A stretch of DNA of 64,000 nucleotides from an uncultured Planctomycetaceae bacterium (GCA_964631565.1 CAZVYJ010000009.1:4862-68861); one strand, 5' to 3'; positions 3,863-53,357 are shown, numbered from the stretch's first letter. Translations and numbers: made by a program. The notes: generated from the sequence alone by a model not told the origin.

Positions 3863-4156
3863 TTCGGCACCCCTGTTCATTTGAAAGGCATTTTACCAGA
3901 ACTCCCCCGCTGGAACAATTCCGGCACCAATGAGGCGTTCGACCTTCCTTGTTGAAAACCAGCGGCACGGGCATCTCCGCAGGACGCTGTGCGTTGCCCG
4001 TGAATTGCCAGGAATGATGACATGCCCCCTGTTGCATCTGCGGCTCCCCTTGCCAGAGGGTTTGCGTTAATTAAAACAACAAACTTACCCGTAACGTCCG
4101 CCTGTGTGCGTGGTTCAACAACAAGCCCATGGCAGCGGGCACGGAGAACCTTGGTT

Positions 4157-6679
4157 ATGACCTGTTTGAGAATTACCGCCGGCATTTCGATGTTATTCTG
4201 CCTTATCGCCTGCCTGACGGGATGCCCAGGAAATAACGACAATATCTCGCCCAATGCAAACAGCTGGCAGCCCTTGACAGCCGACAACCAGCCATATAGC
4301 ATCCCGCAGCCTGTGAATGAACCCGCAAAACTTGAAGGAACTAACAGCATGGCCGCAACACCAGCCCCTGATATTCGCAGCCTTTACAATACAACCCGTG
4401 AGAAAATCGCCGAAATCCGCGCAAACGTCAACCTGGAAGAAAACCCGGCCTACCGGGTCGCGGTCAAGGAGACGGCAAGGACCATAACGCTCAGCCGCGA
4501 GCCTTACAGCATAACGTTCGACCGGAAGTCGGCGATGGTGCGATCCGCCGTCATCGACGGCGTGAAACTTGACGAAGTCATGCTGCCGCACCTGCTGATA
4601 ATCGACGAAAATGGCAAGCCGCAGAAGCAGTCGGAATCGACCGCCGGCGAGCTCAGGGTCCGCCACGAGAAATTCAGCCTGTTCCTGGAAGGATACTTCA
4701 CCATCTGCGGCCGCCGTGTGCCGGTGGTCTATGAAATGGACCGCATGACCGGCACGACGTTCTGCACGATGGACGTGCCCGGCCCGCTGAAGGTCCGGCG
4801 GCTGACGCTGGAGCACTCGCTCGGACGGACGCCGCGCCCGCTGGACACGTTCTACGCCCCGCACCACTATCTCAAGACGTTCAAGCCCTACAAGCCGACC
4901 GTGATCAACGAGCATCGCCCTGACGTGATATTCGAGAAGGACACGATGATGTTCTGGACCGACGGGCACATCGGCATGCAGGTCTATTCGATAACGTGGG
5001 ACAAAAGCAAAGTCCTGCCTGCCGAGAAGAAATACATCTACGGCACGGGGGAAATCCGCGACGGCGCCAGCTGGGCTGACCTGACGTTCATCTCGACCGG
5101 AACGAAGGAAAGCATGCTCCTGCCGGACGGCTACCGGGCGACGTGCGCATTCAGCCCTATGCCATACAAGAAGTGGCGGCCTCTCAGCGATATCGCGTCG
5201 TCGGACTGCGGTTTCGCGCCTAAGGAGGCGCCGGGCTACGAACGCGGCGCAGAAATCGCCGCCGGCCTCAAGCGGTTCGGCCAGGCCGGCACGACGCTGC
5301 TGATACACAACCAGCCGCATCCCTGCTTCGTGCCGCTCGACCCGGACTTCACGCGCTGGCAGGCGGACGAAGCCCGCCGCAACGGCATGAAGATGATTCT
5401 TTACATCGAGCGGTCGTGGGCGCGCGAGGCGGCCCATCCGAAATCGGGCCTGCTGACCGAAGAGGAACTCCTCAACGGGCGGCAGGAACTCAAAAGCCAC
5501 TGGGGCGACAAAGACGGCGGCGCCGGCCGATGGGGCGACCTGCTCACCATGTGCTGCAACTACGAGCCGTGGCGCATCCACCTGCTGACGATGTGCGACT
5601 ACTACGTCGGCACGCTGGGATTCGACGGCATCTACCTCGACACGTCGTTCATCTGCTCGTGCCAGAACACGCGGCACGGCGAAAGCCCCGACGAAAGCAC
5701 GTCGGTCCGCGGCTCAATGATTTTCCAGCAGGACCTGCGGCTGCTGATGGACGACTACGCCCGCAGGAACGGCCGACCCTACATAATCATCAATCACTAC
5801 TGGGATCAGCACGCCGCACCGGTCGCGGGCGTCATCGACTATACGCTGCCCGGCGAGCAGGACGCCAACAAGATGATGAAGACCCTCACGCCGCAGAATT
5901 TCGCCTACGGCTACTCGGCCATCCCGAACGGCGTGAACTCCATGTGGTATACCGCGGGCACGTACGACTACACCTGCCCGCAGATTTACAACGACGCAGC
6001 CGAATGCGGCGGCATGATGTTCGCAGCATGCGCGCCCAACACCGTCGGAATGATGATGCACGTCCGGCACAATCAGCCGGCCGCCCAGTACGGGCTGGAA
6101 GGCTCGACGCCCGTCCACAGGTTCAGCGCCGATTACGACAAGCTGTTCACCGGCGGCGACAGCCGCACCCGGGCCATGATGTATATCAAGGACGACAGCG
6201 CGATGGTGTTCCTCATCAACGACGGCCCGAAAAGCAAAAACACGTCGTTCTCGTTCAGGCATCCACGCGCGTCGTGGAAGAAATGCCTCGTCCTCGACGC
6301 GGCAAACATGACCTGGCAGGTCGTGGACGCCAAGCGAGGAAGAATCGAAATGAGCGGTCTGGACTGCTCCGAAGGCCCGCTGCCGATGATAGTGCGCCCC
6401 TACCCCACGCAGGTCGGCCTGAACTGGTTCGACAACCAGACCCGCAGCGTGAAGGTCGAAGTCTCCGGCACGCAGGTGACCGTGACGGCCCGCGGCGTCG
6501 CAGAATCGGTGAGCGCATGCTACCTCGAGGCCCCCGAAGGAATACAACTGACCCGCATGGGCGTCGTGATTGGCAAGGTCAATCCGAATATCTTCTGCCT
6601 GTCGCTCGCCTACGACCGCAACGGCAGGGCCATGCAGATACTGGAAATCAGCAAGGTCCCGGTTAAACCCAAACGCTGA
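4157..6679 (+). CDS. Large lipoprotein, possibly glycoside-hydrolase-like TIM barrel
   Basis: The track ORF starts at 4022. I prefer ATG 4157 (MTCLRITAGISMLFCLIACLTGC, with lipobox LTGC). The central region (ILYIERSWAREAAH... FDGIYLDTSF...) resembles glycoside-hydrolase-like barrels. That is a weak, by-eye call. The overlapping frames are R/A-rich and spurious. Confidence 0.45.
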   Translation: MTCLRITAGISMLFCLIACLTGCPGNNDNISPNANSWQPLTADNQPYSIPQPVNEPAKLEGTNSMAATPAPDIRSLYNTTREKIAEIRANVNLEENPAYRVAVKETARTITLSREPYSITFDRKSAMVRSAVIDGVKLDEVMLPHLLIIDENGKPQKQSESTAGELRVRHEKFSLFLEGYFTICGRRVPVVYEMDRMTGTTFCTMDVPGPLKVRRLTLEHSLGRTPRPLDTFYAPHHYLKTFKPYKPTVINEHRPDVIFEKDTMMFWTDGHIGMQVYSITWDKSKVLPAEKKYIYGTGEIRDGASWADLTFISTGTKESMLLPDGYRATCAFSPMPYKKWRPLSDIASSDCGFAPKEAPGYERGAEIAAGLKRFGQAGTTLLIHNQPHPCFVPLDPDFTRWQADEARRNGMKMILYIERSWAREAAHPKSGLLTEEELLNGRQELKSHWGDKDGGAGRWGDLLTMCCNYEPWRIHLLTMCDYYVGTLGFDGIYLDTSFICSCQNTRHGESPDESTSVRGSMIFQQDLRLLMDDYARRNGRPYIIINHYWDQHAAPVAGVIDYTLPGEQDANKMMKTLTPQNFAYGYSAIPNGVNSMWYTAGTYDYTCPQIYNDAAECGGMMFAACAPNTVGMMMHVRHNQPAAQYGLEGSTPVHRFSADYDKLFTGGDSRTRAMMYIKDDSAMVFLINDGPKSKNTSFSFRHPRASWKKCLVLDAANMTWQVVDAKRGRIEMSGLDCSEGPLPMIVRPYPTQVGLNWFDNQTRSVKVEVSGTQVTVTARGVAESVSACYLEAPEGIQLTRMGVVIGKVNPNIFCLSLAYDRNGRAMQILEISKVPVKPKR

Positions 6680-6834: not shown

Positions 6835-8379
6835 ATGGCGACGGAATCGCACGCATACGAAGCAGTGAAAATATGCGACGACGTTTACTGGATCGGCGCA
6901 GTCGACTGGGACGTCCGCAACTTCCACGGCTATCTCACCAGCCGCGGCACGACATATAACGCATATCTCATCATGGCCGACAAGCCCGCGCTCATCGACA
7001 CGGTGAAGGCGCCGTTTTTCGGCGAGATGATGTCTCGCATCGCGTCGGTCATCGACCCGGCGAAAATCGAGTACATCGTCTCCAACCATTCCGAGATGGA
7101 CCACACCGGCTCGCTGCCGGCGACCATGAAAGCCGTCGCGCCGAAAAAAGTTTTCGCCTCGGCCATGGGGCAAAAGGCGCTGACGGCCCACTTCCACATG
7201 CCGGCCGAGCAGATAACCGTCGTTAAAACCGGCGACAGCGTTGACCTCGGCGACATGCAGCTGGCCTTCGTAGAGACGCGCATGTGCCACTGGCCCGACA
7301 GCATGGTCTCTTACCTGCCGCAGCGCGAGCTTCTGTTCAGCCAGGACGGGTTCGGCATGCACCTTGCCGGTTGCGAACGCTTCGCCGACGAACTGCCGGC
7401 GGAAGTGCTGCACTACGAGGCCGCCAAGTATTACGCCAACATACTGCTGCCGCTCTCGAAGTTCATCGACAAGGCGCTTGCATCCATCGAGGGCCTCGGC
7501 GTGCCTATAAGTATGGTCGCGCCCGACCACGGCCCGATATGGCGCCGCCCGAAAGACATCGAGTGGATAATCTCCAGCTACGCCCGCTGGTCGGCTCAGA
7601 AGCCCGTGCCGAAGGCCGTCGTGGTTTACGATTCCATGTGGGGATCGACGGCGATGATGGCACGCGCCATCGGCGACGGGCTGGCCGCCGGCGGCGCGCA
7701 CGTCAAGCTCATGAGCATGAACTCCGCCCACCGCAGCGACGTGATTACCGAACTGCTGGAGGCCGGCGCACTGCTGGTCGGCTCGCCGACGATGAACAAC
7801 AACATCTTTCCCACGCTTGCCGACGTGATGACGTACGTCAAGGGCCTGCGGCCTCGCAACCTCATCGGTGCGGCGTTCGGGTCGTACGGCTGGGGCGGCG
7901 AAGCGCCGAAACAACTGACCGCCATCCTGCAGGACATGGGCGTCGAGGTCATCGCCGACCCGCTGCGGATAAATTACGTACCGGACGACGTCGCGCTCGC
8001 CCAGTGCCGGCAGCTCGGCCTGAAAACAGCCGAAATTCTCAAGGCACGCTGCGAAGGCGCGGCGCCCATCGTCCCTGAGGAGCAGCCGGCCCCCTCGAAA
8101 AAATGCGTCATCGACATCAACAACGGCGCCCGCCGGCTGGAGGTTGCGCCAGGGAAAAGCCTCTTCGAGACGCTGAACGACAACAATATTTTCCTGCCGA
8201 CCATCTGCGGCGGCGCTGGCCTGTGCGGAATGTGCAAGGTCACCGTCAAAAGCGGCGGCGGCGAGCCTACGGTCGCCGAAAAAGACCGGTTCTCGACTGA
8301 ACAACTTGCAGCCGGACTCCGGCTCGCCTGCCAGGTGCGTATATCGGGCGACATGGAAATCCAAATCCCGGATCAGTAG
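6835..8379 (+). CDS. Flavodiiron protein (metallo-beta-lactamase-like diiron domain plus flavodoxin domain) with a C-terminal plant-type [2Fe-2S] ferredoxin domain
   Basis: The N-terminus matches rubredoxin-oxygen oxidoreductase / FprA (YWIGAVDWDVRNFHGY...SNHSEMDHTGSL). A flavodoxin-like segment follows (VVYDSMWGSTAMMARAIGDGL...). The last ~95 aa carry CGGAGLCGMC...LACQ, the Cys spacing of NqrF/phenol-hydroxylase-reductase type 2Fe-2S ferredoxins. Confidence 0.8.
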   Translation: MATESHAYEAVKICDDVYWIGAVDWDVRNFHGYLTSRGTTYNAYLIMADKPALIDTVKAPFFGEMMSRIASVIDPAKIEYIVSNHSEMDHTGSLPATMKAVAPKKVFASAMGQKALTAHFHMPAEQITVVKTGDSVDLGDMQLAFVETRMCHWPDSMVSYLPQRELLFSQDGFGMHLAGCERFADELPAEVLHYEAAKYYANILLPLSKFIDKALASIEGLGVPISMVAPDHGPIWRRPKDIEWIISSYARWSAQKPVPKAVVVYDSMWGSTAMMARAIGDGLAAGGAHVKLMSMNSAHRSDVITELLEAGALLVGSPTMNNNIFPTLADVMTYVKGLRPRNLIGAAFGSYGWGGEAPKQLTAILQDMGVEVIADPLRINYVPDDVALAQCRQLGLKTAEILKARCEGAAPIVPEEQPAPSKKCVIDINNGARRLEVAPGKSLFETLNDNNIFLPTICGGAGLCGMCKVTVKSGGGEPTVAEKDRFSTEQLAAGLRLACQVRISGDMEIQIPDQ

Positions 8380-12850: not shown

Positions 12851-12886
12851 AGTCGCACAACGGTGAATATCCACGGGGAGAAAAAA

Positions 12887-14590
12887 ATGAAACGGACGCC
12901 GATAGCTGCAGCCGCCCTGCTGGCGTGCATAGCTGCATACAGTTTTCACGCAACCTTTGCCGACGAGCCGGCCGCCACAAAACCGGACGGAGAAAACGCG
13001 GAAAAACCTAACAAGTTCGGCATCACCGTCTCGAAAGAAACCACGTTCATCACCGAGCCTCTCAACGCCGACGGCACGGTGGACTATGTCGCAGCCGCCA
13101 ATAACATGCTCTCGAAGGGCGTAACGAAGGACAACAACGCGGCCGTTCTGATAATCAAGGCCTTCGGCCCGAAGTTTTTCAGAGACGAAGACCCCGCCCC
13201 CATACTGAAAGTACTCGACATAACGCTGCCGGAAGACAAAGACGGCGTTCAGTACTATCATAATTACCTGGAATACGCCAGTTTGGCATTTTCAGACAAT
13301 GAATATAAGGCAAAAATGGAGTTTCAGAAAAACATGGGGGATGCAGAACTGGCGACAGAACAGCAGAAACCTCTGACCAAAGACCAGCGGCGGTGCGCGA
13401 AAGACTGGCTACAGTCAAATGCCATGCCCCTGCAGCAACTGACGGAGGCTTCCAGCCGCCCGCAGTTTTACATTCCCTTCATACCGGAAAAAGATCCTGG
13501 CGGCGACACTGCCGTTTTTCTGAATACAAGCTATTTGGCCAACATGAGGCTGATCGCCAATACATTTCGCATGCGGGCTCTTCTGCTGGCAGACGAAGGC
13601 GAGATCGACGCGGCCATAAGAGACACATGTACAATCGCCCGCCTAGGAAACCTTGTGTCCAAGAAAAATCTGATGATTGACCGCATAGTCGGAATCTCGA
13701 TTAATGTCATGGCACACAAAACGGCCGGCTATATCGCATCGCATTGCAATCTGACCGCCGAAGAGGCAAAAAAATGCCTTACCGAATTTCAAAAAGTTCC
13801 ATCTTTACCTCCCATAACAAAGATTTTCGAATCAAACGAACGGTTCTTCGCACTCAGCTTCTGGCAGTCCTCAGCGAGATTCAGTCTGGATGAGGTTACG
13901 CTGTCTTATGCATACCCTGAAGAAGACAAAAAAATCAAAGTACCTGATGTTCAGCTCAACTGGGACATGCTGCTGAAAATGGAAAACGACTATTTTGATA
14001 AACTCGCCGAAGCCGCATCGGCAAAGACATTCAGAGAACAATACGAGAATCTCAGAAAACTGGACGGCGGCGACGAAAAGGACGATGTCATTCTAAATCC
14101 CGACGAATTCGGCGGGACAAGAGGCAAACTGAAGAAACTTATCGAAGAAATAGGCACGGATGACTGTGATAAACTGACACTAGCTATCTGGAATTTTTCC
14201 CATAAAGATTTCATTCCGACACACCGATTTTTTGCTCTCGATGCCAGGCAAACTGCAATGCGCCATCTGGCCGAAGTAGCTTTCGCGATGGCGGCTTACA
14301 AGGCGGAGAAAGGCGAGTACCCTCAGAAGCTTGCTGACCTGGCGCCGGATTATCTGAAAACCGTCCCCAACGACATCTACACAGATAAACCTCTTATATA
14401 CAGACTCGCAGATGATGGCTACGTGTTGTACAGCGTCGGCGAGGACATGAAAGACGACGGCGGCGACGAAGGGGACGATTCAGTCGAGAAAAGTCTGCTG
14501 GTCCGCGTCGGCGAAAAACCAAAAGAGGACGAATCTGTCCCGTCGCCCCAGCCTGGTCCTAATCCGCCGGCTGTTCTTCCGGGACTATAA
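12887..14590 (+). CDS. Secreted hypothetical protein with a C-terminal domain like the type II secretion pseudopilin GspG
   Basis: ATG 12887 (MKRTPIAAAALLACIAAYSFHATFA, a signal peptide) with GGGGAG 7 nt upstream. The C-terminus AMAAYKAEKGEYPQKLADLAPDYLKTVPNDIYTDKPLIYRLADDGYVLYSVGEDMKDDGGDEGDD follows the GspG C-terminal pattern (A..Y....G.YP..L..L...YL...P.DP...PY.Y......Y.L.S.G.D...GG). It lacks the prepilin N-terminal hydrophobic helix. Confidence 0.6.
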   Translation: MKRTPIAAAALLACIAAYSFHATFADEPAATKPDGENAEKPNKFGITVSKETTFITEPLNADGTVDYVAAANNMLSKGVTKDNNAAVLIIKAFGPKFFRDEDPAPILKVLDITLPEDKDGVQYYHNYLEYASLAFSDNEYKAKMEFQKNMGDAELATEQQKPLTKDQRRCAKDWLQSNAMPLQQLTEASSRPQFYIPFIPEKDPGGDTAVFLNTSYLANMRLIANTFRMRALLLADEGEIDAAIRDTCTIARLGNLVSKKNLMIDRIVGISINVMAHKTAGYIASHCNLTAEEAKKCLTEFQKVPSLPPITKIFESNERFFALSFWQSSARFSLDEVTLSYAYPEEDKKIKVPDVQLNWDMLLKMENDYFDKLAEAASAKTFREQYENLRKLDGGDEKDDVILNPDEFGGTRGKLKKLIEEIGTDDCDKLTLAIWNFSHKDFIPTHRFFALDARQTAMRHLAEVAFAMAAYKAEKGEYPQKLADLAPDYLKTVPNDIYTDKPLIYRLADDGYVLYSVGEDMKDDGGDEGDDSVEKSLLVRVGEKPKEDESVPSPQPGPNPPAVLPGL

Positions 14591-15485
14591 GCCGGTCGTC
14601 GTCGGTTTCCGGTTCTTCTTTTTTCGCCGTAACGCCGAGGATGAACGGTTTTGTGTCCAGCTTGGGTTCTGTCCCAGCCGGGCGGCCGCACGCAGGGTCG
14701 GCCTTGTCGGGAATCTCAAACTTCACCGGCTCCGATTTGCCCTCCGGCGAAATGTAAACGCTCAGCTGCGGGTAATACTCCACGGAAATCTTCCGCCAGT
14801 CGTCCAGTTTCATCCGCTCGCGGCGGAGCACGTGTTCCTGGTTGGCGACGCGTTGCCAGCCGCCAGAGTCGAACTCGAAATACCACAGCTCAATCCGCCA
14901 GATTATTTCATCCGGTTTCTGGCCGTAGAACTGCCGCCGGCGGATGCCCTCGACGAGCATCGTCGCCCGCCGGCCGTGGCCCTGTATGTAAATCGGCCGG
15001 CGGATATCCAGAAAATCGTCCAGGTCGGCGACGTATTTTTCAAGCTGCTTCGCGTCGTCCTCGCTGAAGTCGTGCGTCTGCTCAGCCGGCAGTTTTAGCT
15101 GCTCGCGGCGTTTGGCGGCCATCCGAAGCAGGCGGGCGTCGGTGAATTCCAGGTCTATCCCCTCTATCGCCCTGCCGTCGGCGGTTTCGATGCAGACATC
15201 ATACGTCGCGTCGCCGGCCAGCGCCTTGAACGCAAACGCCCCGGTTTTCGCGTCGAACGAATCGGGCTTGAATGTTTCGCCCGTCGCCCGCGAGACGAGC
15301 CGGACGCTTTCAGCCTTGACCTTGTCAGCCGGGCTTATGGCGCCTGTAACGTCGCCGCTTTGCGGCTTGGGCAGTGGAGGCGGATCTTCGGCCAGTTCGC
15401 CCGCGGCCAGCCACGCCGCAAGCACGCAAATCGGAAGCGTTACAACGACGGCGGTCCTGATTTTCGCAGCAATTCGCATGGACAC
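14559..15485 (-). CDS. Secreted hypothetical protein
   Basis: N-terminal signal peptide (AVVVTLPICVLAAWLAAG). No recognisable domain. Its 3' end overlaps the 3' end of the convergent upstream gene by 32 bp. Confidence 0.5.
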   Translation of the reverse strand: MSMRIAAKIRTAVVVTLPICVLAAWLAAGELAEDPPPLPKPQSGDVTGAISPADKVKAESVRLVSRATGETFKPDSFDAKTGAFAFKALAGDATYDVCIETADGRAIEGIDLEFTDARLLRMAAKRREQLKLPAEQTHDFSEDDAKQLEKYVADLDDFLDIRRPIYIQGHGRRATMLVEGIRRRQFYGQKPDEIIWRIELWYFEFDSGGWQRVANQEHVLRRERMKLDDWRKISVEYYPQLSVYISPEGKSEPVKFEIPDKADPACGRPAGTEPKLDTKPFILGVTAKKEEPETDDDRLIVPEEQPAD

Positions 15486-15821
15486 AATCGCCTGATATTA
15501 ATTGTTTATGCGCGGCGGCCTTCCCAGGCTGTCGCGCCGATTGCAGTCGCTTAAACATATCCATGGCGGCATGGGAAGGCCGCCATGCAAATGCGCAGGC
15601 TGTATTTTCGGGTCAAACCCGGCGGCGTCTTGCATTAAACACGCCAGTCATTATACTCTGGACGTTTCGTATTAGCATCTTTTCGGAAATGTTCTCCTTG
15701 CTGGCCGCGAGCGGGAGCGGGAATCTTGGGTTGATTTTATTTACCGCTCACTGCCGTTCGCGGCTAGTTTAGTTGCCGCACAAAATACGAAAATGCCGCA
15801 GTGTACGTTTAAGAAACGAAT

Positions 15822-18203
15822 ATGATCGGCTCGAAGTACTCAAATACATTGTTGGTCTGCCTCATGGCGGTTGTCGTCAGCCTGTCGGCTTTTTCGAGCT
15901 TGTCGTCCGCCCAGGAATCGCCCATCAGCATGTCGCTGTCCAAGGGCGGGTTCACGCTCTACGCCAGGAAAAACACGTGGCGGCAGCAGAGCGTCGCGGT
16001 AACCAACATAACCGGCTCGCCCCGCGATCTGACCGTCGTATACGCCACCAGCGACCCGAAAAAAGGCGAGGCCCGCTTCACCCGGACAGTCACGGTTCCG
16101 CCCCACTGCACAAGAAGCGTCGATCTGTTCGTGCACATGACGGAGCTTGAGCAGATCGGCAAAAAGATCGGACGCTTCGACGCCGCCGGCGTGGCGTTCA
16201 AGCTGTTCGACGCTGAAACCGGCGAACAATTGAACTTCGGCAACGACATGGCATCCATCGTGCCGGACGATAATATGCTCATCGCGTTCATCACGGATTC
16301 ATCGGACGAAAACGAGGTCCGGACCTATCTGACCGACATGAAAGACCAGCCGCTCGGCGAAGTCTGCGTCATCGATCCGCAGCTTGCGACCTATCCCGAC
16401 CGCTGGTTCGGGTACGACATGACCGACATCGTCATTGTCGGCGGCCAGGATTTCTGCAAGCTGCGCCCCTCGCAGGTGCAGGCCGTCCTCGACTGGACCA
16501 GCCGCGGCGGCGTGCTGGTTCTTCGCGGCAGCGCAGCGATGCTGGATGTGCTTGACGGCCCCTTAGGGGAGGCTGCGGGCGTCGAGACGGTCGGCTTCCA
16601 TCGCACGATTTCGCTGGATGTCAGCGAGTCGTCCGGCCTGCATGTTGCGAAGGTAACACTGCCGCAAGCCCTTGAAATGGTCGAAATCGTCCCCAACGGA
16701 GCCGATGTGCTTTACACCGCAAACGGCCTGCCGCTGCTTACAAGGCATCGTTACGGCCAGGGATGGGTGTTCGCGCTCGCGACGCCGGCGGCGGGACTTC
16801 AGGACGAAAAACTACAGCAGATATGGAAAGTCGTATACGCAGCCAGGAATACGCTGCCCACAGTCGATGACACAGAGTTCGCATCACCGACACTGACCGC
16901 CCTTGAGCAGATTGCCGGGCGGAAAGCCCCGCCTCGCAGCGTTCCGATGGCGATGCTGCTCGTGCTGGCGGCGGCGACCGTGCTGGCCGGGTTCCTCCTT
17001 CGCCGCAAGCACGGCGAATGGCTGTGGGCTGCACTTGCGCCGGCGGCCGTGATTATCGGCATAGTTCTGTACGTCATGGGAGTGCAGCAGACCGACCCGC
17101 CGCGGCTGTCATATGTCGGCGTCATCTCCGCACTGGACGGGGATAAAGTTTCCGTCAAGGGCGCGTTCGCATACTACAGCGGTCCGGACAGCCGAGATAT
17201 GAACTTCGTCGCGGGCAATGAGCTGACCCTCATCGAAGACGCCTCGGGCGGACAGATAGGTACGCTCACACTGACCCGCACGCAATGCGGGGCGCAGCTT
17301 TCGCTGCCTGACGTGCCGCTGCCGCCCAACAGCATCAGGACTTTCCTGCTGGACGGAATCGCGACGATGCCGCCCGTGCGGGCGTCGTTCACATTCGGGC
17401 CGGACGGAGCCGTCGGCACGATAACGAACAACACCGGCGTCGACGTCCAGGACGCCGTGTTATACATCCGCCGCCGCAGCTACAAGGTGGGCGACCTGCC
17501 GGCCGGCAAAACGACATCCGTCACGCTCGCGACATCCGACCTGCTCGGCGACGGCAACTTCACAGGCAGTCTCACGCCGAGCACCGGCGACAAGCTCCGG
17601 AACGCGATGCTGCATGCAATGACCTTCGGCAGGAGAAATCTTCGCAGACACGACGACAGGCCGCTGCTTATCGCTCACGCGGCGATAATGCCTCTCGACC
17701 CGCTGCCGGGCGACGGGCTGACGCGACAGGGCTGGTCCGTGCTCATCTGGCCGGTTGAAATATCGTCCCCACCGGCAGGCACGCAGATAATCATGCCGTC
17801 AGGTTTCATAGAGACACGTATAATCGCCCCGAATGCATATAACGAACTGGACAACACTTTCACCGGCACTTACCGCCCCACCGAGGTGCTGCTGCTCGTG
17901 GGCAGGCCGGAAATAACATACAACCTCTCCGGCGCCGCGTTGAAACTGGCCATCGGCATAAACGCCCCGACCTGCCGCATGACAGTCGCCGGCAAAAGCG
18001 GAGATGAATACACCGAAATCAAGTCCTTCACAGGCCCGGTCGGTCTGCTGGGCGAAATAGAAATCCCGGACGCCGAGAGGTTCCTCAACGCCGACGGACA
18101 ATACGAGATATCGATTAAAATCGAGAAACCGGCCGGGCCGGAAGACCTGACGCTGTGGCAGTTCAGAAGCATAGACGTCTCGCTGGAAGGAAAAACCAGG
18201 TGA
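15822..18203 (+). CDS. Bitopic ABC-transporter auxiliary protein, GldG-like (ABC_transp_aux-like)
   Basis: Signal peptide. A central pair of transmembrane helices (MAMLLVLAAATVLAGFLL...ALAPAAVIIGIVLYVMGV). The GldG-like family call is tentative and made by eye. It is the first gene of a translationally coupled operon. Its stop overlaps the next gene's start (GTGA). Confidence 0.45.
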   Translation: MIGSKYSNTLLVCLMAVVVSLSAFSSLSSAQESPISMSLSKGGFTLYARKNTWRQQSVAVTNITGSPRDLTVVYATSDPKKGEARFTRTVTVPPHCTRSVDLFVHMTELEQIGKKIGRFDAAGVAFKLFDAETGEQLNFGNDMASIVPDDNMLIAFITDSSDENEVRTYLTDMKDQPLGEVCVIDPQLATYPDRWFGYDMTDIVIVGGQDFCKLRPSQVQAVLDWTSRGGVLVLRGSAAMLDVLDGPLGEAAGVETVGFHRTISLDVSESSGLHVAKVTLPQALEMVEIVPNGADVLYTANGLPLLTRHRYGQGWVFALATPAAGLQDEKLQQIWKVVYAARNTLPTVDDTEFASPTLTALEQIAGRKAPPRSVPMAMLLVLAAATVLAGFLLRRKHGEWLWAALAPAAVIIGIVLYVMGVQQTDPPRLSYVGVISALDGDKVSVKGAFAYYSGPDSRDMNFVAGNELTLIEDASGGQIGTLTLTRTQCGAQLSLPDVPLPPNSIRTFLLDGIATMPPVRASFTFGPDGAVGTITNNTGVDVQDAVLYIRRRSYKVGDLPAGKTTSVTLATSDLLGDGNFTGSLTPSTGDKLRNAMLHAMTFGRRNLRRHDDRPLLIAHAAIMPLDPLPGDGLTRQGWSVLIWPVEISSPPAGTQIIMPSGFIETRIIAPNAYNELDNTFTGTYRPTEVLLLVGRPEITYNLSGAALKLAIGINAPTCRMTVAGKSGDEYTEIKSFTGPVGLLGEIEIPDAERFLNADGQYEISIKIEKPAGPEDLTLWQFRSIDVSLEGKTR

Positions 18204-19204
18204 CAGAAAAAAACGACATCATTGTTAACTGCGAGGGCCTGACGAAAACCTACGAAGAGCTGACGGCGCTGAACAATCTGACGCTCCAGATCCGCCGCGG
18301 GCAGATATTCGGCTATATCGGGCACAACGGCGCCGGCAAGACCACGACCATCCGCATACTGGCGGGCCTGCTGAAGGCCTCCAGCGGAAAGGCGACGATA
18401 GCTGGCGTTGATGTTGAGAGCGGCCGCGACGAGCTCAAGCAGGTAGTCGGATATATGCCGGACAGCTTCGGCGTCTACGATCAGATGCGCGTCTGGGAAT
18501 ACCTGGACTTTTTCGGAGCCGCATTCCGCATCCCTCGCAAGCAGCGGCGAGAGAGAATCGACCATGTGCTGAACATCACCGACGCCGAATACATGCGCGA
18601 CCGCTTCGTCGACACGCTGTCGAAGGGCATGAAGCAGCGGGTCGGAATCGCCAGGACGCTCATTCACGACCCGGAGGTGCTGCTGCTCGACGAGCCCGCC
18701 AACGGCCTGGACCCGCGGGCCAGAATCCAGATGCGGCAACTTCTCCGCAAGCTCGCCGATTCGGGCAAGACGCTGCTTGTAAGCTCGCACATACTTCCGG
18801 AACTGGCGGCCGTCTGCGACGCCATCGGCATCATCCACCAGGGCAACCTGCGAACGTACGGGCCGATACAGAAAGTCCTCAGCGAAATACAGCGCGACCG
18901 GCTGATGGAAGCGAAACTGCTCAGCGGCGCCGACGCCGTCGCAAAACATATCGGGACGAACCAGCACTGCAAGAACATCGACACGTCCGACATCGCCGAG
19001 GGCGTCGTCCGCTTCCGTTTCAGCGGCGACGACGGCGAATTGTCGGCTCTGCTGGGCGGGCTGATTTCAAAAGGCGTCAAGGTTGTCACGTGGCGTGAAG
19101 TGCCGCTGAGCCTCGAAGACGCATATATGGCCGTCAGCGGCATAAGCTCCGAGGTTCCAGGAGAAGCCGAAGAAAACTCCGACGAAAACAAAAAGAATGA
19201 TTAG
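18200..19204 (+). CDS. ABC transporter ATP-binding protein
   Basis: Walker A GHNGAGKTT, ABC signature LSKGMKQR, Walker B LLLDEP. GTG start at 18200. Confidence 0.9.
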   Translation: MTEKNDIIVNCEGLTKTYEELTALNNLTLQIRRGQIFGYIGHNGAGKTTTIRILAGLLKASSGKATIAGVDVESGRDELKQVVGYMPDSFGVYDQMRVWEYLDFFGAAFRIPRKQRRERIDHVLNITDAEYMRDRFVDTLSKGMKQRVGIARTLIHDPEVLLLDEPANGLDPRARIQMRQLLRKLADSGKTLLVSSHILPELAAVCDAIGIIHQGNLRTYGPIQKVLSEIQRDRLMEAKLLSGADAVAKHIGTNQHCKNIDTSDIAEGVVRFRFSGDDGELSALLGGLISKGVKVVTWREVPLSLEDAYMAVSGISSEVPGEAEENSDENKKND

Positions 19205-20891
19205 CAACCCGATCATACACAAGGAAGTCCTCTCGGCCTTGCGAACGCGAAAGGCGGTCGCGATGCAGGGATTGTTCTTCCTGATTACCGCGATGCTTAT
19301 CTGGCGGCACTGGCCGGCGGACGGCCTGCAGGACCTGGGAGGCCAGCAGGCGCTGCAGATTCTCAGCAGCCTGGCAATCGGCGAAATGGTGATGATCGCC
19401 CTCTTCGCGCCGGCATTCACCGCCACTTCGCTGACGCTGGAGAAGGAACGCAATACGTTCGAATCGCTTTTCGCCACGGCGATGAGGCCGTGGCAAATAG
19501 CCGTCGGCAAGATGATAGGCTCGCTCTGCTTCCTCTGCCTGCTGGTGGTAAGCGGCATACCGGCGATAGCGGCGGTGTTCCTGCTGGGCAACATAAGCGG
19601 CGGCACCGTCGTCGCTCTCGTGGCGATTCTGCTGCTGACGGCTGCCTATCTCGGGTTTATCGGCCTGCTGGTAGGCGCGTACATGCACCGCAGCTACAGG
19701 GCGATTGTCGTAACCTACGCGATTCTGCTGGTAGTGTGCGTCCTGTTCGCCCTGCCGGCGATGACGGGCCTTATCTCACGCGGCAGCGGCATATGGCAGA
19801 ACATTCTGCACACTCTGGCGTCGTTCAGCCCGATACAGGCCGTCGTGTCGCTCATCTGGCCGAGCGGAACAAGCAGCCTGTCTCAGGAAGCCGGCAACAT
19901 GCCCGCATACTGGAAGATGTACATCCCGCTGAGTCTGCTGACAATCTGCGTGACGGCGGTGATATGCCTCATAAAGCTTCACCGCCCCGTCGCCCCGCCG
20001 CGACCGAGAGAAAACGTAAAAGTCATCGAGCGGAACAAGTTTTCCGGCCGTTCGGTGCTGTACATGTGGTTCTTCGACCCGCGAAGGCGCCGCCGCAACA
20101 TCGGCCCGCTGCAGAACCCGGTGCTGATGAAGGAATTCCGCAGCCGACCGATGCTGCAGACTCGCTGGCTGATGCGGGCGATAGCAATCAGCCTCATCTG
20201 CTCGGTGCTGCTCATGTTCCTGGTGAACGTGAGCGTGATGACAATGTCGCAGGAATCGCAGACCGGCTCGGCGATACCGGGCATGATGGCGTCGGTCGCG
20301 GCCCTCATGACGATGCTGGTCATGCTGGTCGGCCCGGCGATGGCGAGCGGCGCGATATGCTCCGACCGCGAAACCGGCGTCTGGGACCTGATGCGGACGA
20401 CGCGGCTGTCAAGCTGGCGAATCGTCAGTGGAAAATTCCAGGCTTCCATCATTCCCATGCTGCTTCTGGTGCTGGCCACGACGCCCTCGCTGGTCGTACT
20501 GCTTTACTTCTCGCAGTCCATCTGGCCGAACATTTTGAGAATTCTATACGTGGTGGCCGTGACGATTTTGTTCGTCTCAACGGCCGGAACGTTCTTCTCA
20601 AGCGTGTTTTCGAAAACCTCCACCGCTACGGCATGGACCTACTCGCTGATAATCATCATCGCCATGGGATCGTTCGTGGTGCTCATGGACCCGGAAGGCT
20701 TCTCGCCGAGATTCGTGCGTGGAATTTTCCTGTTCAACCCGATAGCTGCGGCGCTGAGCGCGGCCGGTTATGCAGCCGTCGAAAAATACGGACTGGTGGT
20801 CGGCGACCATCTCGCCCTGATGGCTGCGGCGACCGCGATGATGTTCATCGCCACCGTCGTTCGTGTGGTGCAGCTGCGGAAGGCAACCTAG
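19197..20891 (+). CDS. ABC-2 family permease, tandem duplication fused into one ~12-TM protein
   Basis: Two homologous halves. Each has the loop motif after transmembrane helix 2 (LTLEKERNTFESL, and SDRETGVWDLMRTTRLSS) followed by about five more transmembrane helices. The ATG overlaps the ATPase stop. Confidence 0.75.
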   Translation: MISNPIIHKEVLSALRTRKAVAMQGLFFLITAMLIWRHWPADGLQDLGGQQALQILSSLAIGEMVMIALFAPAFTATSLTLEKERNTFESLFATAMRPWQIAVGKMIGSLCFLCLLVVSGIPAIAAVFLLGNISGGTVVALVAILLLTAAYLGFIGLLVGAYMHRSYRAIVVTYAILLVVCVLFALPAMTGLISRGSGIWQNILHTLASFSPIQAVVSLIWPSGTSSLSQEAGNMPAYWKMYIPLSLLTICVTAVICLIKLHRPVAPPRPRENVKVIERNKFSGRSVLYMWFFDPRRRRRNIGPLQNPVLMKEFRSRPMLQTRWLMRAIAISLICSVLLMFLVNVSVMTMSQESQTGSAIPGMMASVAALMTMLVMLVGPAMASGAICSDRETGVWDLMRTTRLSSWRIVSGKFQASIIPMLLLVLATTPSLVVLLYFSQSIWPNILRILYVVAVTILFVSTAGTFFSSVFSKTSTATAWTYSLIIIIAMGSFVVLMDPEGFSPRFVRGIFLFNPIAAALSAAGYAAVEKYGLVVGDHLALMAAATAMMFIATVVRVVQLRKAT

Positions 20892-20900
20892 GAGCGTGAT

Positions 20901-22688
20901 TTGAAGCTGCGAATCGTCATTTTGATTCTTACTGTCGCGAGTCTTGCCTCCGCGGGTGTCGCGGCTGAAAAAATATTGAAACCTTCACGAGGCGAAGGCC
21001 TGCTGGAGCGGGCGTATTTCGGCGATTCCGAAAGCGTCAGCCGGCTGGCCGTCCTGCTGGACGATGACGACCCGCTGGTCCGCGAAAAAGCCGTCCTCGA
21101 CCTCGGCGAAACACACAATCGCGAGGCCTTGCCGCACATTCTGCGGGCTATTAAGGATCCCGAGCCGACTGTACGAGCCGCTGCGGTCAAGGCGGCTGCC
21201 GAATCCGGCTTCGACGAGATGAATACGCATATCATCTCCGCACTCGGAGACGGAGACAGCGGCGTTGTTCTTGCGGCGATATCAACCGTGCGAGCCTTGA
21301 AGCTCGCCGACGCGAAAGACACCCTGCTCAAAACGTCTGTCACTAAAAACCGGACCGTTCAGCATCTCGCAATCAAAACGCTTACGGAACTCGGCTTAGC
21401 CCTCAGCGGCGACGAAATCAACAATCTGCTGCAGAGCGGCTGGCTGGGCGTTCGCCTGGCGGCGCTTGAAAATGCCCTGCTGCTGGACAGTCTGGCCGAC
21501 ACGACGGCGATAGCCGTCGCAGCCGACAGCGGTGAACCGGCTCAGCAGGCGGCGGCAATGGCGGTTCTGGGCAAATTCAACTATTCCGCAGCGGAAACAT
21601 ACATCGGCAAGGTCGAAAACAGCAGCAATCCGATTCTGCGTCGCGGTGCGGTGTGGGCGTATCAGTATGCCGGCAAGGCCGACTGCATCAGGAAATTCCT
21701 CGACGACGAATCGCCGCTGGTCCGCCTGGCGGCCATCAAGGCGGCCGGAATCACAAAAGCCGACGACTGCAACGACAGGCTGTTTGAACTGATGACATCG
21801 GCCCCGCACAAACTTTCGCACGACGCCTGCCTGGCGAGCCTGCTGGCCATCGCGAAACCCGAAACCGCCAAGCTCGCGGCGAAATGGCTGAAAGAAAACG
21901 CCGACAATATGGTGGCCGTCGACCAATGGGTCGCCCAGCAAAACAAAAAAATGGAAGCTCCGGTTTCCGAAATAATCGCAAAAAAGGAAGCACTTGCAGT
22001 GCTTCAGCGCAACGCGTCCTCGTGCTGCCGACTGCTGGCCTCGCTCAAAAGCACGCTGGCGGCCGACCAGCTGCGAGCGATGCTGGCCGGCGTTCAGATG
22101 GACTCGCCCGTCCTGGTCGCATTGGCGGAGTATTATTCGACGGTCACCGGCGAGGCCGACACCAAAGCCATGGCGAACCTGCTGGACCGCCTGAAAGCCC
22201 GCTGCGGGGAATATCTGGCGGCAATCATGGCCATGCAGCCGCCTCCGCCGTACAGCAGGGAAGTGACCGTCGCCGTCATAAAAACGCTTGGAAAACTCAA
22301 GTCGCCGGATATCGAACGGAGCCTCATCGGAATCATGGCTTTCCAGTTCGGCGCCACCCGGCAGGAAGCCGAATGCGCCGCCGCTATTCGCGCAGTCAGG
22401 CCGATTCTTTCTCCGGAAAACAGCAAGGCTGTCGAAGGAATACTGGCGGATATCGTCAATAACAGCCTGCTGCTCACGCTGCAGTACGAAGCTGCCATCA
22501 GCCTCGGCGAGATGAAAAGCACAGACTCCCTAGATGCCCTTCGCACGCTGCTGAATAAGAAGCGTCCGAACAAGACGGTAATGCAGGCCGCGGCGTGGGC
22601 GATACAGGAAATCTCGGGCGAAACGCCGGCCGTTCCAGACCCGGTCCGCCATGAAGGAAACTGGATCATCCGCGCGGCGAAGCGGTAG
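20901..22688 (+). CDS. Secreted HEAT-repeat (PBS-lyase-like) protein
   Basis: TTG 20901 with AGGAG 6 nt upstream. Signal peptide. Repeated units DPLVREKAVLDLGE / EPTVRAAAVKAAAE / SPLVRLAAIKAAG are typical HEAT_2 repeats. Confidence 0.65.
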   Translation: MKLRIVILILTVASLASAGVAAEKILKPSRGEGLLERAYFGDSESVSRLAVLLDDDDPLVREKAVLDLGETHNREALPHILRAIKDPEPTVRAAAVKAAAESGFDEMNTHIISALGDGDSGVVLAAISTVRALKLADAKDTLLKTSVTKNRTVQHLAIKTLTELGLALSGDEINNLLQSGWLGVRLAALENALLLDSLADTTAIAVAADSGEPAQQAAAMAVLGKFNYSAAETYIGKVENSSNPILRRGAVWAYQYAGKADCIRKFLDDESPLVRLAAIKAAGITKADDCNDRLFELMTSAPHKLSHDACLASLLAIAKPETAKLAAKWLKENADNMVAVDQWVAQQNKKMEAPVSEIIAKKEALAVLQRNASSCCRLLASLKSTLAADQLRAMLAGVQMDSPVLVALAEYYSTVTGEADTKAMANLLDRLKARCGEYLAAIMAMQPPPPYSREVTVAVIKTLGKLKSPDIERSLIGIMAFQFGATRQEAECAAAIRAVRPILSPENSKAVEGILADIVNNSLLLTLQYEAAISLGEMKSTDSLDALRTLLNKKRPNKTVMQAAAWAIQEISGETPAVPDPVRHEGNWIIRAAKR

Positions 22689-25270: not shown

Positions 25271-27538
25271 TTACTTTATACGATACACCTGGCTGCGGAG
25301 GCGGATTATCAGTTCCTCGCCTTCCTGCTGGCTGGCGAGAATCTGGTTTTCCTCGGTAGTATTGGCCTTGACCAGCTCGAAATACTTCTCGCTGTACCGC
25401 TCCACATCCTCGATTTTCTCTTTGTCCTTTTCCGGGTCTACGTCGGATGCGTTGGATGCTATCCACACCCTGCCCCGCTGATAGACGGCCTGATTGCCGA
25501 TATTCCGGACGCCGGAAACTTTCTCTTTCTCGTCTTTCTCGTAAGTATCCTTTCTGCCGTAGCCGATCTGCTCTGAATCCGTTACACCGGGAGCCGATGC
25601 GCCCTTTACCTGTGTTGCCTCGTTGAGTACGCTCCTGTTTTTCGCACCACGCTGGCCGGTCTCGCCCTCCACCTTTCTCAACTCACTGGTGCTTCTCCTG
25701 GCCCGCTCGCGGACTTCACCCGGCCTGGACAATGTCGTTCTCTCGTCGGCGAGGAAGCTGGTGTACGGCGTCATTATGCCGTAGGCCATGGAAAGGCGGA
25801 CAAGTTCGTCGATGACTTCCTTGTTCTCGCCGTGAAGCTGTATCTGGTCGAGCAGCCAGCCTACCCGCCGCATCGCCCAGAGTTTTTCGACGAACTTGTA
25901 CGGGTCGTATTCGCCGCCGCCGACTGCATTCCGAACGGTAACGGGATATTCAAATGCCTTCTGCTGGCCTTCGTATACGCCCTTGACCACCAGCGTGGCG
26001 GAAACATTGTCACGCGAATCCCCGCCGCCTTCCACGCTGTAGCGGCCGAGCAGCACTATCTGGTCGCCTTCGAAAATGTCGCCGATCTCGCGCGGGTACA
26101 CATCGGAGAGCTTCACGCCCGGCATTTCAACGGTGACGTTGGTCATGACGGGATTTTTAATCTTCGTGTAAAGTGACGAAACCTTGGTCTCGATGGGTTC
26201 GTTGGGCTTTACGTATTCGCTTCTGCCGCCGTTGTCGCCGACCATCTTGTCCAGCAGGCGGACGTTGACGTCGTAGCCCACGCCGAACGCGAACAGCCTT
26301 GCGCCGGCCTTGTTGGCGTCTTTCGTGTCGGCGATGATTTTATCTTCCTTGGTATGCGCCGGCGTCTTGCCAGCCGTCGGCAGACCATCGGTCAGGAAAA
26401 TTATGTACTTGGGCCTGCCGGTCGGTTTGTCGGCCTCACCGGCCCAGCTGCCCATGGCGACCTGAAGCGCCTCGTGTATGTCGGTCGAGCCGTTGGCCTC
26501 GATGCCGTCAAGCATCTTAAGGGCCTCTTTGACCTTGTCGCCGGCCGGGGCAAGCTCCTTGAAGAAAGGCGAAACTGTATCGCTGTAGACGATGATATTG
26601 AAGCGGTCTCCGCTGTTAAGGCCTCCCAGCACCTGGGCGGCCGCCTTGCGGGCCTGCTCGATCTTCTCGCCGCTCATCGAGCCGCTCTTGTCCAGCACGA
26701 TAACCACGTCCTTGGCGACGACGCCGGTCTGGGCCGTCCGCGGATTCGGAGTAGCGAGCACCATGAAATAGCCGTCTTCGCTGGTGGGCTTGCTGGTTAT
26801 CATCGTCGCGCCGATTGCCTCGTCACCCTCCCTGTAGAACACCTGAATGTCGCTGGTCGGCAGCGTGTTTTTCGCCGAGTAGACGGCCGTCACGTGGCCG
26901 GTGTCTTTCGGGTCGCGATTGACCGTCAGGTCGTGGGTCGGCGAGTAGACGGCGGAAACGTCGGTATTGGACTTGATGTCAACCGTCACCTGCACGTCTT
27001 CAATCGGCCGGGCGGAAAACTTCTCGGTGTTCAGCGGGTACCATACCTCGACCAGGCCGTTGTCTTTCTTGCAGACGTACTTGTAGTTGACGACGATTCT
27101 GGCCGGCGTGCCCGGCTCCAGCGGAAACGCCCTGGTCCGGTAAAGACCGAACCCGGCGTATTCCAGAAGCGCAGGGTCCTTCTTCTGGCGGACGATGTCT
27201 TCGTAGATTTTCCGGGCTTCGTCGGCCTTCATCAGCCTGGCGGAGTATTCCTTGTCGTTGACCAGCAGCGTCATTGAATCGATCGCCGCCCCCGGAGGCA
27301 CGGGGAAGAGATACTCCACCTCTATCATTCCCTTGCCGGTGTTGATGAATTCCTGGTCGATGCTCACCGAAGCGACCTGGTCGCGGACCTTGATGTTCAC
27401 GCGATGATATTTGACCGCCCACGAGCCGGTGACCCGAACCTCAGGATTGACCGGCACGATAAGGCCGTCGGCCGCAGCAATCGATGCGGCAAACCCCACA
27501 AGCAGAACAGCAGTTAAGAACCTTATTTTCCCCGTCAT
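25271..27538 (-). CDS. Secreted VIT-domain plus von Willebrand factor A-domain protein
   Basis: Signal peptide. The N-terminal region is VIT-like. The vWA MIDAS motif reads VVIVLDKSGSMSGEKI...NIIVYSDTV...FLTDGLPT. Confidence 0.8.
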   Translation of the reverse strand: MTGKIRFLTAVLLVGFAASIAAADGLIVPVNPEVRVTGSWAVKYHRVNIKVRDQVASVSIDQEFINTGKGMIEVEYLFPVPPGAAIDSMTLLVNDKEYSARLMKADEARKIYEDIVRQKKDPALLEYAGFGLYRTRAFPLEPGTPARIVVNYKYVCKKDNGLVEVWYPLNTEKFSARPIEDVQVTVDIKSNTDVSAVYSPTHDLTVNRDPKDTGHVTAVYSAKNTLPTSDIQVFYREGDEAIGATMITSKPTSEDGYFMVLATPNPRTAQTGVVAKDVVIVLDKSGSMSGEKIEQARKAAAQVLGGLNSGDRFNIIVYSDTVSPFFKELAPAGDKVKEALKMLDGIEANGSTDIHEALQVAMGSWAGEADKPTGRPKYIIFLTDGLPTAGKTPAHTKEDKIIADTKDANKAGARLFAFGVGYDVNVRLLDKMVGDNGGRSEYVKPNEPIETKVSSLYTKIKNPVMTNVTVEMPGVKLSDVYPREIGDIFEGDQIVLLGRYSVEGGGDSRDNVSATLVVKGVYEGQQKAFEYPVTVRNAVGGGEYDPYKFVEKLWAMRRVGWLLDQIQLHGENKEVIDELVRLSMAYGIMTPYTSFLADERTTLSRPGEVRERARRSTSELRKVEGETGQRGAKNRSVLNEATQVKGASAPGVTDSEQIGYGRKDTYEKDEKEKVSGVRNIGNQAVYQRGRVWIASNASDVDPEKDKEKIEDVERYSEKYFELVKANTTEENQILASQQEGEELIIRLRSQVYRIK

Positions 27539-52595: not shown

Positions 52596-53355
52596 GCCGC
52601 ACCTGCCCGACGATATAACGGTCAGGCACTGGCTGGCGGCGTACATCGTGATGCTTGCGGCAGCCGCCGTGCCGATGGTCATGCTCATCGCAGCCGACGG
52701 GCTTGGCTGGGAAAACTGGAGGCATGCCCCGCAGAAAACGTTTACCGAGGCAAGTGCGATTATCAAGCTGCTGGGCTTCGCCATCTACATGTCGTTTTGC
52801 TGCACCGTCCTGCCCATGCCCACGAGCTGGATAGTCGCCGCAGTAGCCACGCGCGACGCCGCAGTGGGCGACGGCGTGTGGGACACTGTCGCACTGGTCG
52901 CTGTCGTCGGGGCATTCGCATCCACCGTGGCGAACCTCAACGATTACCACCTGTTCACGTGGATACTCCGCCACAAGAAAATTGCGAAGGTCCGCAACAC
53001 GAAAACCTACCAGAAGGCGGCGGCGTGGTTTTCGAGATCGCCGTTCCTGCTGCTGGTGGTTTTCAACCTCATTCCGATACCTATCGACATCGTCCGGATG
53101 CTCGCCATCACCTACCGCTACCCGCGAGTGCCGTTCGCGGCGGCGAACTTTATCGGCAGATTGATCCGGTATGCGATACTCGCGTTCGTTATATACTGGT
53201 GGAACCTCGGATGGTACGCGGTGGTCGCCCTGCTGGCCCTTGCGGTGGTGCTTGGCGGCGGCAGAGGCGTAATAGCGATGTACAGGCGACTTACCCGGCG
53301 GACAAACGCCGCGGCGGTGAACGTGTCGGAATCAATAGAAACACAGGAGCAGTAA
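52570..53355 (+). CDS. Polytopic inner-membrane protein, possibly DedA/VTT-like
   Basis: About 5-6 transmembrane helices. Its start overlaps the upstream ATPase gene. The family assignment is weak. Confidence 0.45.
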   Translation: MMSDHHILEPHLPDDITVRHWLAAYIVMLAAAAVPMVMLIAADGLGWENWRHAPQKTFTEASAIIKLLGFAIYMSFCCTVLPMPTSWIVAAVATRDAAVGDGVWDTVALVAVVGAFASTVANLNDYHLFTWILRHKKIAKVRNTKTYQKAAAWFSRSPFLLLVVFNLIPIPIDIVRMLAITYRYPRVPFAAANFIGRLIRYAILAFVIYWWNLGWYAVVALLALAVVLGGGRGVIAMYRRLTRRTNAAAVNVSESIETQEQ

Positions 53356-53357
53356 GC

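Follow-up and report, generated by a model that had tools for sequence, protein, structure and literature searches.

The window analyzed here, a stretch of 64,000 nucleotides from an uncultured Planctomycetaceae bacterium (GCA_964631565.1, CAZVYJ010000009.1:4862-68861), contains a translationally coupled operon of four genes that encodes an ATP-binding cassette (ABC) ATPase, a fused permease and two probable periplasmic proteins. ORF calling returns four co-directional open reading frames (ORFs) on the + strand within positions 15822-22688, at exactly the coordinates that an earlier note on this DNA had given. Gene 1 (15822-18203, +) encodes a 793-residue protein, a probable membrane-anchored periplasmic accessory protein, and gene 2 (18200-19204, +) an ABC ATPase of 334 residues when counted from the GTG codon at 18200. 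Gene 3 (19197-20891, +) encodes a fused double ABC-2 permease of 564 residues, and gene 4 (20901-22688, +), which starts with TTG, a secreted HEAT-repeat protein of 595 residues. Because all four ORFs have conserved homologues, their arrangement is not due to chance.

The junctions between the genes are tight. At the first one, GTGA (18200-18203) comprises the GTG start of gene 2 and the TGA stop of gene 1 in a 4-bp overlap, as the earlier note had described, and GGAAGG lies 9 nt upstream of the GTG. The longest ORF of gene 2 begins at 18155; the alternative GTG at 18200 is taken as the start because the homologues comprise 334-341 residues and exhibit the same 4-bp overlap. Genes 2 and 3 overlap by 8 bp, ATGATTAG, at 19197-19204, where the stop codon of gene 2 is TAG and not part of the ATGA that had been read there. 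Gene 3 ends with a TAG at 20889-20891, and the TTG of gene 4 follows at 20901. It is preceded, again as the earlier note had it, by an AGGAG Shine-Dalgarno sequence (20890-20894, +) that overlaps the permease stop codon and lies 6 nt before the TTG. The operon is bordered upstream by a 336-bp divergent intergenic region and downstream by a convergent flavin-reductase gene.

Within this intergenic region, a block at 15619-15675 (+) holds the hexamers TTGCAT (15630-15635) and TATACT (15652-15657) at a 16-nt spacing. The block is near-identical in L003, the closest related locus, whose remaining intergenic region has diverged, and its hexamers suggest a putative operon promoter. A consensus promoter and terminator scan returned nothing informative for the operon and left these hexamers unreported, the match to the -35 element being too weak. 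The region also contains a perfect 9-bp inverted repeat, CATGGCGGC-N8-GCCGCCATG, at 15562-15587, which, unlike the adjacent block, is not kept in L003. Long overlapping or antisense ORFs of up to 469 residues are found inside the operon (17870-18967 on the - strand and 19490-20899 on the + strand, for example); no independent evidence supports them, and DNA of ~60% G+C can be expected to contain such ORFs.

The ATPase and the fused permease

Gene 2 belongs to the DrrA/GldA/NatA-like group of ABC ATPases, with an ABC_tran score of 106.4 bits against a cut-off of 25. The best subfamily score among the NCBIfam models is that of drrA (TIGR01188, 221 bits), below the cut-off of 312, while GldA (TIGR03522) returns 196.8 bits, below its equivalog cut-off of 402.6. 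The Walker A (GHNGAGKTT), signature (LSKGMKQR), Walker B (LLLDEP) and H-loop (SSH) motifs are intact and are kept in 19-20 orthologues, suggesting that the nucleotide-binding domain (NBD) is catalytically competent. The signature is non-canonical, LS[KRH]GMKQR, and the segment VGYMPD (residues ~95-100) exhibits an Asp at the position where the Q-loop Gln is expected; both features are conserved in all orthologues examined. This single ATPase gene stands beside a permease with two transmembrane domains (TMDs), the NBD being encoded separately.

Three Pfam ABC-2 families match gene 3, each of them in two stretches: ABC2_membrane_3 (72.1 bits, cut-off 31.6), ABC2_membrane_2 (53.6 bits, cut-off 27.2) and ABC2_membrane (46.1 bits, cut-off 26.9). 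Hydropathy and the structure predicted by AlphaFold2 (AF2; predicted local distance difference test, pLDDT, 81.7; predicted TM-score, pTM, 0.78) both report 6+6 transmembrane (TM) helices, TMD1 covering residues 1-262 and TMD2 residues 307-564, joined by a disordered, K/R-rich cytoplasmic linker (residues ~263-306). That the permease results from an internal duplication, as the earlier note had proposed, is borne out by the alignment of the two halves, both in BLASTP (18% identity, E 1e-7) and in a profile-profile comparison with hhalign (98.4% probability, E 6e-15, 249 columns, 14% identity), and the motif NP[IV][IL]xKE opens both halves. The note had also assigned the motif E-x-E-x-G-T-x-E to each half. 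Conserved variants are indeed located at the ends of TM2 and TM8, although the literal motif occurs in neither half. In TMD1, the sequence is EKERNTFE (residues 82-89; 19440-19463, +), at the end of TM2 in the predicted coupling-helix region; its diverged counterpart in TMD2 is DRETGVWD (residues 390-397; 20364-20387, +), at the end of TM8. The half-specific forms, E-[KR]-E-x-N-T-x-E for TMD1 and D-R-E-[TS]-G-V-W-[DE] for TMD2, are each conserved in ~120 homologues, which implies a conserved asymmetry between TMD1 and TMD2, each half keeping its own variant. Since the halves have diverged and each variant is conserved, the duplication is old and its asymmetry maintained.

A search of the PDB sequences with gene 3 reports NosY as the sole match at E≤1, with E 0.026 for the single sequence (phmmer) and 3e-5 for the profile (hmmsearch). 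Foldseek analysis of the gene 3 model likewise returns NosY chains first, with a target-normalized TM-score (TMt) of 0.65-0.73 per half. The second hit, Rv1217c (PDB 8k1m-8k1p), is the sole target spanning both halves (574 columns, query-normalized TM-score, TMq, of 0.53). Further hits are ABCG25, ABCG2, ABCG5/8 and PmtCD, the type V matches being reported at probability 1.0. Gene 3 is thereby predicted to exhibit the ABC-2/type V fold as a single-chain pseudo-heterodimer.

The two first hits differ in how their TMDs are built. In NosY, two copies of a single 6-TM chain form a homodimer; in gene 3, the two halves have diverged and are fused. The mycobacterial type V exporter Rv1217c-Rv1218c, a rifampicin-resistance pump, comes closer in this respect: Rv1217c is one polypeptide in which the two TMDs are fused, and together with an Rv1218c homodimer it exhibits a type V fold (PMC11406275). 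Like Rv1217c, gene 3 carries two non-identical TMDs in one chain and is accompanied by a separately encoded NBD. In contrast, extracellular helices between TM1 and TM2 gate Rv1217c, while the gene 3 loops at this place span only ~12 residues, and Rv1217c is devoid of accessory periplasmic proteins. A fused ABC-2 permease is therefore rare, in keeping with the earlier note, which had called it unusual, but it is not unprecedented, Rv1217c-Rv1218c being the one solved precedent. Neither phmmer nor hmmsearch of the PDB sequences detects any similarity between Rv1217c and gene 3 at E≤1, and for this reason the two fusions may be independent. Gene 3 would then be the second single-chain double ABC-2 permease of independent origin and, unlike Rv1217c, one with dedicated periplasmic partners.

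The accessory proteins and the distribution of the module

Hydropathy and the AF2 model (pLDDT 77, pTM 0.72) divide the first half of gene 1 into a signal peptide (residues 1-31), a β-sandwich (residues 35-157) and a DUF4350-like α/β domain (residues 163-345); the model places a TM hairpin (residues 373-422) and β-rich C-terminal domains (residues 428-792) in the second half. In the hydropathy profile, the N-terminus is signal-like and two hydrophobic helices stand in the centre (residues 374-392 and 403-421), and the hairpin (16938-17087, +) is also found in the family alignment. It is flanked by lobes of ~340 and ~370 residues. The central pair of TM helices between two large lobes described in the earlier note is thus retained, while the term bitopic used there has to be replaced by a hairpin. 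The short hairpin loop, predicted to be cytoplasmic, carries the basic stretch RRKH, and the family alignment reports a conserved loop motif, R-R-G-E-x-x-W, in which E399 and W402 are invariant. If we assume that the signal peptide is cleaved, both lobes should be periplasmic.

The α/β domain (residues 163-345; 16308-16856, +) is the segment that resembles the DUF4350/GldG superfamily. Pfam analysis of gene 1 returns only sub-threshold matches, DUF7408 and DUF4350, at residues 201-322, DUF4350 (PF14258) scoring 15.3 bits with a gathering threshold of 30.4 bits. The DUF4350 match is located at the same site in 8 of 10 close relatives (DUF7408/DUF4350 matches are found in 7-8 of the 10), and many distant relatives also match DUF4350, the best with 28.7 and 28.9 bits against the cut-off of 30.4. 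The homology between this domain and DUF4350 is taken here as real but remote. DUF4350 proteins have been reported to match GldG (TIGR03521) with a 99.2% HHpred probability, as well as the β-galactosidase trimerization domain (Makarova et al. 2015, PMC5898192). Taken with the recurring DUF4350 matches, this link agrees with the loose GldG resemblance suggested by the earlier note and suggests that gene 1 is not unrelated to the ABC auxiliary proteins. The family alignment reports no invariant Cys in the α/β domain, making a glutaminase-type catalysis unlikely, and the domain is probably not catalytic.

The other searches with gene 1 are less specific. Whole-chain Foldseek analysis of the model reports GH164 β-mannosidase chains (probability 1.0, ~410 columns), in keeping with the β-galactosidase link of DUF4350 and a possible flavodoxin/GATase1-like fold of the α/β domain, but with a low TMq of 0.17-0.18, and most of the other matches are generic multi-β-sandwich proteins (GH2 glycosidases, α-2-macroglobulin/complement) with TM-scores of 0.1-0.2. 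The predicted structure does not point to any specific homologue, and neither the single sequence nor the profile returned anything meaningful among the PDB chains. NCBIfam assigns no family to gene 1, and Pfam does not report any NosD/β-helix match in it. Barring the sub-threshold DUF4350-like stretch, the gene 1 family is unannotated in the current Pfam and NCBIfam. It is nevertheless large: a word-based search found just 9 relatives (31-72% identity), whereas an exhaustive HMMER profile search revealed 5214 cluster representatives at E<1e-3, 1793 at E<1e-10 and 159 at E<1e-30, many of them matching over the full length of ~800 residues. The family merits its own definition.

Gene 4 is assigned HEAT_2 repeats (PF13646; 104.7 bits, cut-off 27.7) in five stretches, following a signal peptide at residues ~1-22. 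A hydrophobic, signal-like N-terminal segment is present in all 11 orthologues examined, and the TTG start is shared by the L003 orthologue. A conserved cofactor-like motif was sought in gene 4, and none emerged.

The four-gene order, which the earlier note had proposed to look for in other genomes, is found in at least 12 other loci (L001-L004, L006-L008, L010-L014 and L020). The reading given in the note is thereby supported on both points by which it was to be judged, the conservation of the operon and the relation of gene 1 to ABC auxiliary proteins. Those with organism titles all belong to metagenome-assembled genomes (MAGs) of Phycisphaerae/Planctomycetota. Compared with the window, the Phycisphaerae-type loci share 62-87% identity in the ATPase and 50-89% in the permease, versus 31-72% in gene 1 and 28-64% in the HEAT protein. 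These values suggest that the motor, formed by the ATPase and the permease, is conserved while the periplasmic parts evolve fast. The flanks can be unrelated, with transposases and a transketolase in L004 and with PolX and a pyruvate formate-lyase (PFL) activase in L007/L008. L020 is much more distant (28% identity in the permease), and its fourth gene is a strong HEAT_2 protein. Both the 4-bp overlap of genes 1 and 2 and the overlap between gene 2 and gene 3 are found again in L001-L004, L006 and L020.

Three further loci, L021 (a Ca. Brocadiia MAG), L023 and L024, contain the core of genes 1-3, with 22-23% identity to the window in gene 1, 49-52% in the ATPase and 33% in the permease. Across the distant loci, the core persists with gene 1 at 22-24% and the permease at 28-33% identity: genes 1-3 are co-inherited across deep divergence. 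None of these three loci has a HEAT gene beside the core, and gene 4 is therefore not essential to the core mechanism. The HEAT partner of the earlier note is accordingly kept in the four-gene loci without being part of a universal core. At least 189 relatives of the fused permease, of ~560 residues, are found, the named ones in Phycisphaerae or Planctomycetota MAGs. The homologues bear 'hypothetical' or generic names, and no study of this operon system was found in the literature.

Proposed function of the module and rival readings

We hold with moderate confidence that the four gene products form a single envelope ABC machine of the ABC-2/type V class. The data show the structure and coupling of the genes, their domains and fold class, the duplication in the permease and the conservation of the module; the physical complex, the copy numbers of its parts, the transport direction and the cargo are inferred. 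Two copies of the gene 2 ATPase would lie under one gene 3 chain and dock on its two different coupling regions, the two diverged 6-TM halves forming a built-in pseudo-heterodimer. The signal peptide would direct the export of gene 1, and the central hairpin, which probably packs against the asymmetric permease, would anchor the protein in the inner membrane. Gene 1 would set two periplasmic lobes, comprising the GldG/DUF4350-like α/β domain and β-sandwiches, over the transporter. In Phycisphaerae, gene 4 would add a soluble HEAT solenoid to the periplasm, produced at a constant ratio to the other parts, which may serve as a scaffold or acceptor. ATP binding and hydrolysis would bring the two TMDs together, in the manner of NosFY and Rv1217c-1218c, and this closure would either expel a hydrophobic envelope component to the periplasmic partners or move these partners mechanically.

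The genes surrounding the operon in the window encode a flavin reductase, a GATase, a VIT-vWA protein, ScpA and a class I tRNA synthetase, and the wider window includes genes for a ProRS-like protein, RecG and Sua5. Together with ScpA and the tRNA synthetase, the latter genes form a housekeeping setting, which hints that the module acts constitutively in the envelope. Widespread in the phylum, tightly coupled and with strongly conserved motor parts, the module seems to serve a core function and not to be an accessory pump. PADLOC reports generic ATPase matches only, and a role in defence was accordingly rejected.

Several observations weigh against the proposed machine. The HEAT gene is missing beside the core in L021, L023 and L024, and much of the conservation of the operon lies within one class, in which the flavin reductase, GATase and ScpA genes are likewise syntenic. 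No neighboring gene points to a cargo. Moreover, every DUF4350 match in the gene 1 family lies below the Pfam gathering score, gene 1 does not match GldG (TIGR03521) in the NCBIfam scan at E≤0.1, and PF09822 (ABC_transp_aux) is absent among the Pfam matches at E≤1 of 10 members of the family.

Among the known systems, NosDFY(L) (PDB 7o0y, 7qba, 7znq), an ABC-2 complex that matures nitrous oxide reductase, is the nearest to the permease. Each gene 3 half is closest to NosY by profile and by fold, and both systems would combine a separate homodimeric ATPase with a large periplasmic partner. However, gene 1 is not a NosD β-helix and the HEAT protein has no Nos counterpart. The resemblance raises the possibility of a pure mechanotransducer of the NosDFY kind, in which the motion of the TMDs remodels or loads a periplasmic client, nothing crosses the membrane, and gene 1 or the HEAT protein is the client or a chaperone platform. 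We consider it unlikely, though by no means far-fetched: NosY is the closest solved relative in both sequence and fold, a built-in asymmetric TMD with large periplasmic partners recalls the mechanotransmission systems LolCDE, LptB2FG and NosDFY, and fast-evolving periplasmic partners around a conserved motor would fit it as well. Against this, neither a NosD-like β-helix nor NosL nor a client enzyme is encoded nearby, and the type V relatives (Rv1217c, the ABCG transporters and PmtCD) transport hydrophobic substrates. Sequence data of this kind would suit mechanotransduction or export and do not separate them. A NosFY-type maturation system for copper enzymes is barely credible. It is suggested by the similarity of the permease to NosY and by the name 'multi-copper enzyme maturation permease' that the Joint Genome Institute (JGI) gives to many homologues, but this label is a generic COG name, and genes for NosD, NosL, NosZ or cupredoxins are found neither in the window nor in the related loci examined.

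The sole solved single-chain match with two TMDs is a rifampicin-resistance pump, Rv1217c, and drrA is the best subfamily model for the ATPase (221 bits). From this one might propose a pump of the Rv1217c-Rv1218c or DrrAB kind for the efflux of drugs or toxic metabolites, with gene 1 and the HEAT gene as functionally unrelated neighbors. The conserved start/stop overlaps and an order of auxiliary protein, ATPase and permease that is held at 22% identity make this quite improbable. Rv1217c has no sequence-level match to gene 3, the drrA score remains under the cut-off of 312, and the conserved context is of the housekeeping type, with neither regulator nor resistance genes.

The gliding-motility ABC transporter GldAFG of Bacteroidota is built from comparable parts: a DrrA-like ATPase, an ABC-2 permease of the COG1277 type and an auxiliary protein that is anchored in the membrane and lies in the periplasm. 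The α/β domain of this protein is GATase1-like, as may be that of gene 1. No substrate of GldAFG is known. The NCBIfam matches include GldA and GldF, and the family of the gene 1 domain has been reported as GldG-related. That the operon is an orthologue of GldAFG is nonetheless very improbable, and membership is effectively refuted as all three equivalog models fail: GldA with 197 versus 403 bits, GldF (TIGR03518) with 41.2 bits versus a cut-off of 288.5, and GldG unmatched. The gene order differs, the permease is fused, the HEAT partner has no equivalent, and gene 1 possesses a signal peptide, a central hairpin and two lobes, whereas the anchors of GldG are terminal. The hosts differ as well, since the relatives with organism titles are Planctomycetota, devoid of the gliding machinery, and the Pfam matches of the window do not include any gld/spr, gliding or type IX secretion system (T9SS) genes. 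Nothing supports the motility-type machine that the earlier note had considered, the closest solved relative of the permease being NosY and not GldF.

The proteins of the DUF4350/arCOG01314 group, which are parts of predicted secretion or membrane-remodeling complexes, resemble gene 1 in having a signal peptide and a membrane-anchored extracytoplasmic DUF4350-type domain, often with vWA proteins near (PMC5898192). Unlike gene 1, they possess a single C-terminal TM helix, and the partners in their systems are MoxR AAA+ ATPases and vWA proteins instead of an ABC transporter.

The module belongs to an already known kind, the ABC-2/type V transporters that have periplasmic accessory proteins. New here is the combination of a fused asymmetric TMD, an accessory family that is unannotated and has two lobes around a central hairpin, and the HEAT partner in Phycisphaerae. 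The cell envelope of Planctomycetota is unusual and poorly understood, and few of its envelope-biogenesis systems have been studied. With little confidence, one may go further and picture the core as a phylum-wide, probably housekeeping Planctomycetota envelope machine of a new architectural type V class. Its single-chain TMD, asymmetric at all times, would clamp the gene 1 hairpin and drive gene 1 by mechanotransmission, the HEAT solenoid of Phycisphaerae would bridge towards the outer membrane, and the task would be a step of envelope biogenesis such as the delivery of a lipid, lipoprotein or glycolipid. If this were true, that step would be served by unrelated systems in other Gram-negative bacteria. 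The module should in any case be useful for studying the coupling between type V ABC transporters and extracytoplasmic proteins.

Neighboring genes

Divergent from the operon, a gene at 14559-15485 (-) encodes a secreted protein of 308 residues with no known domain, for which Pfam, NCBIfam and PADLOC return no match. Among the 16 Phycisphaerae-type loci that include upstream sequence, 11 have an orthologue (45-69% identity) beside the module; L004, L006-L008, L015 and the distant loci lack it. In L011, the gene is located on the other side of the module, beside the GATase gene. The protein could be a fifth partner or could reflect synteny only.

Proteins with vWA domains recur within a few kb of the module. 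The VIT-vWA protein of the window is encoded at 25271-27538 (-), and other vWA genes are found in L003 (14849-17158), L010, L013, L018 (1-1273), L023 (2126-5228) and L024 (1872-4935), those of the distant loci L023 and L024 being of the BatA/DUF58 type. DUF4350 proteins have been reported with vWA/MoxR modules (PMC5898192), and the recurrence near the module may be a coincidence.

Rfam and tRNA scans of the window were empty. Outside the operon, five large ORFs (481-957 residues) have no Pfam match at the thresholds used: 4022-6679 (+), 12863-14590 (+), 52797-54242 (+), 54249-57122 (+) and 62127-63611 (-). One of them, of 575 residues, exhibits a signal-like N-terminus and has a 53%-identical orthologue in L003. 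The ORF at 6835-8379 (+) combines an ODP metallo-β-lactamase-like domain, a flavodoxin and a 2Fe-2S ferredoxin in one protein, a flavodiiron-like fusion; an antisense ORF of 536 residues that overlaps it returns no matches and is probably spurious. Lastly, the segment 50681-52595 (+) encodes a MacB_PCD/FtsX-type permease of 403 residues followed by a 231-residue ORF, possibly a mechanotransducing ABC system of the LolCDE/MacB type.

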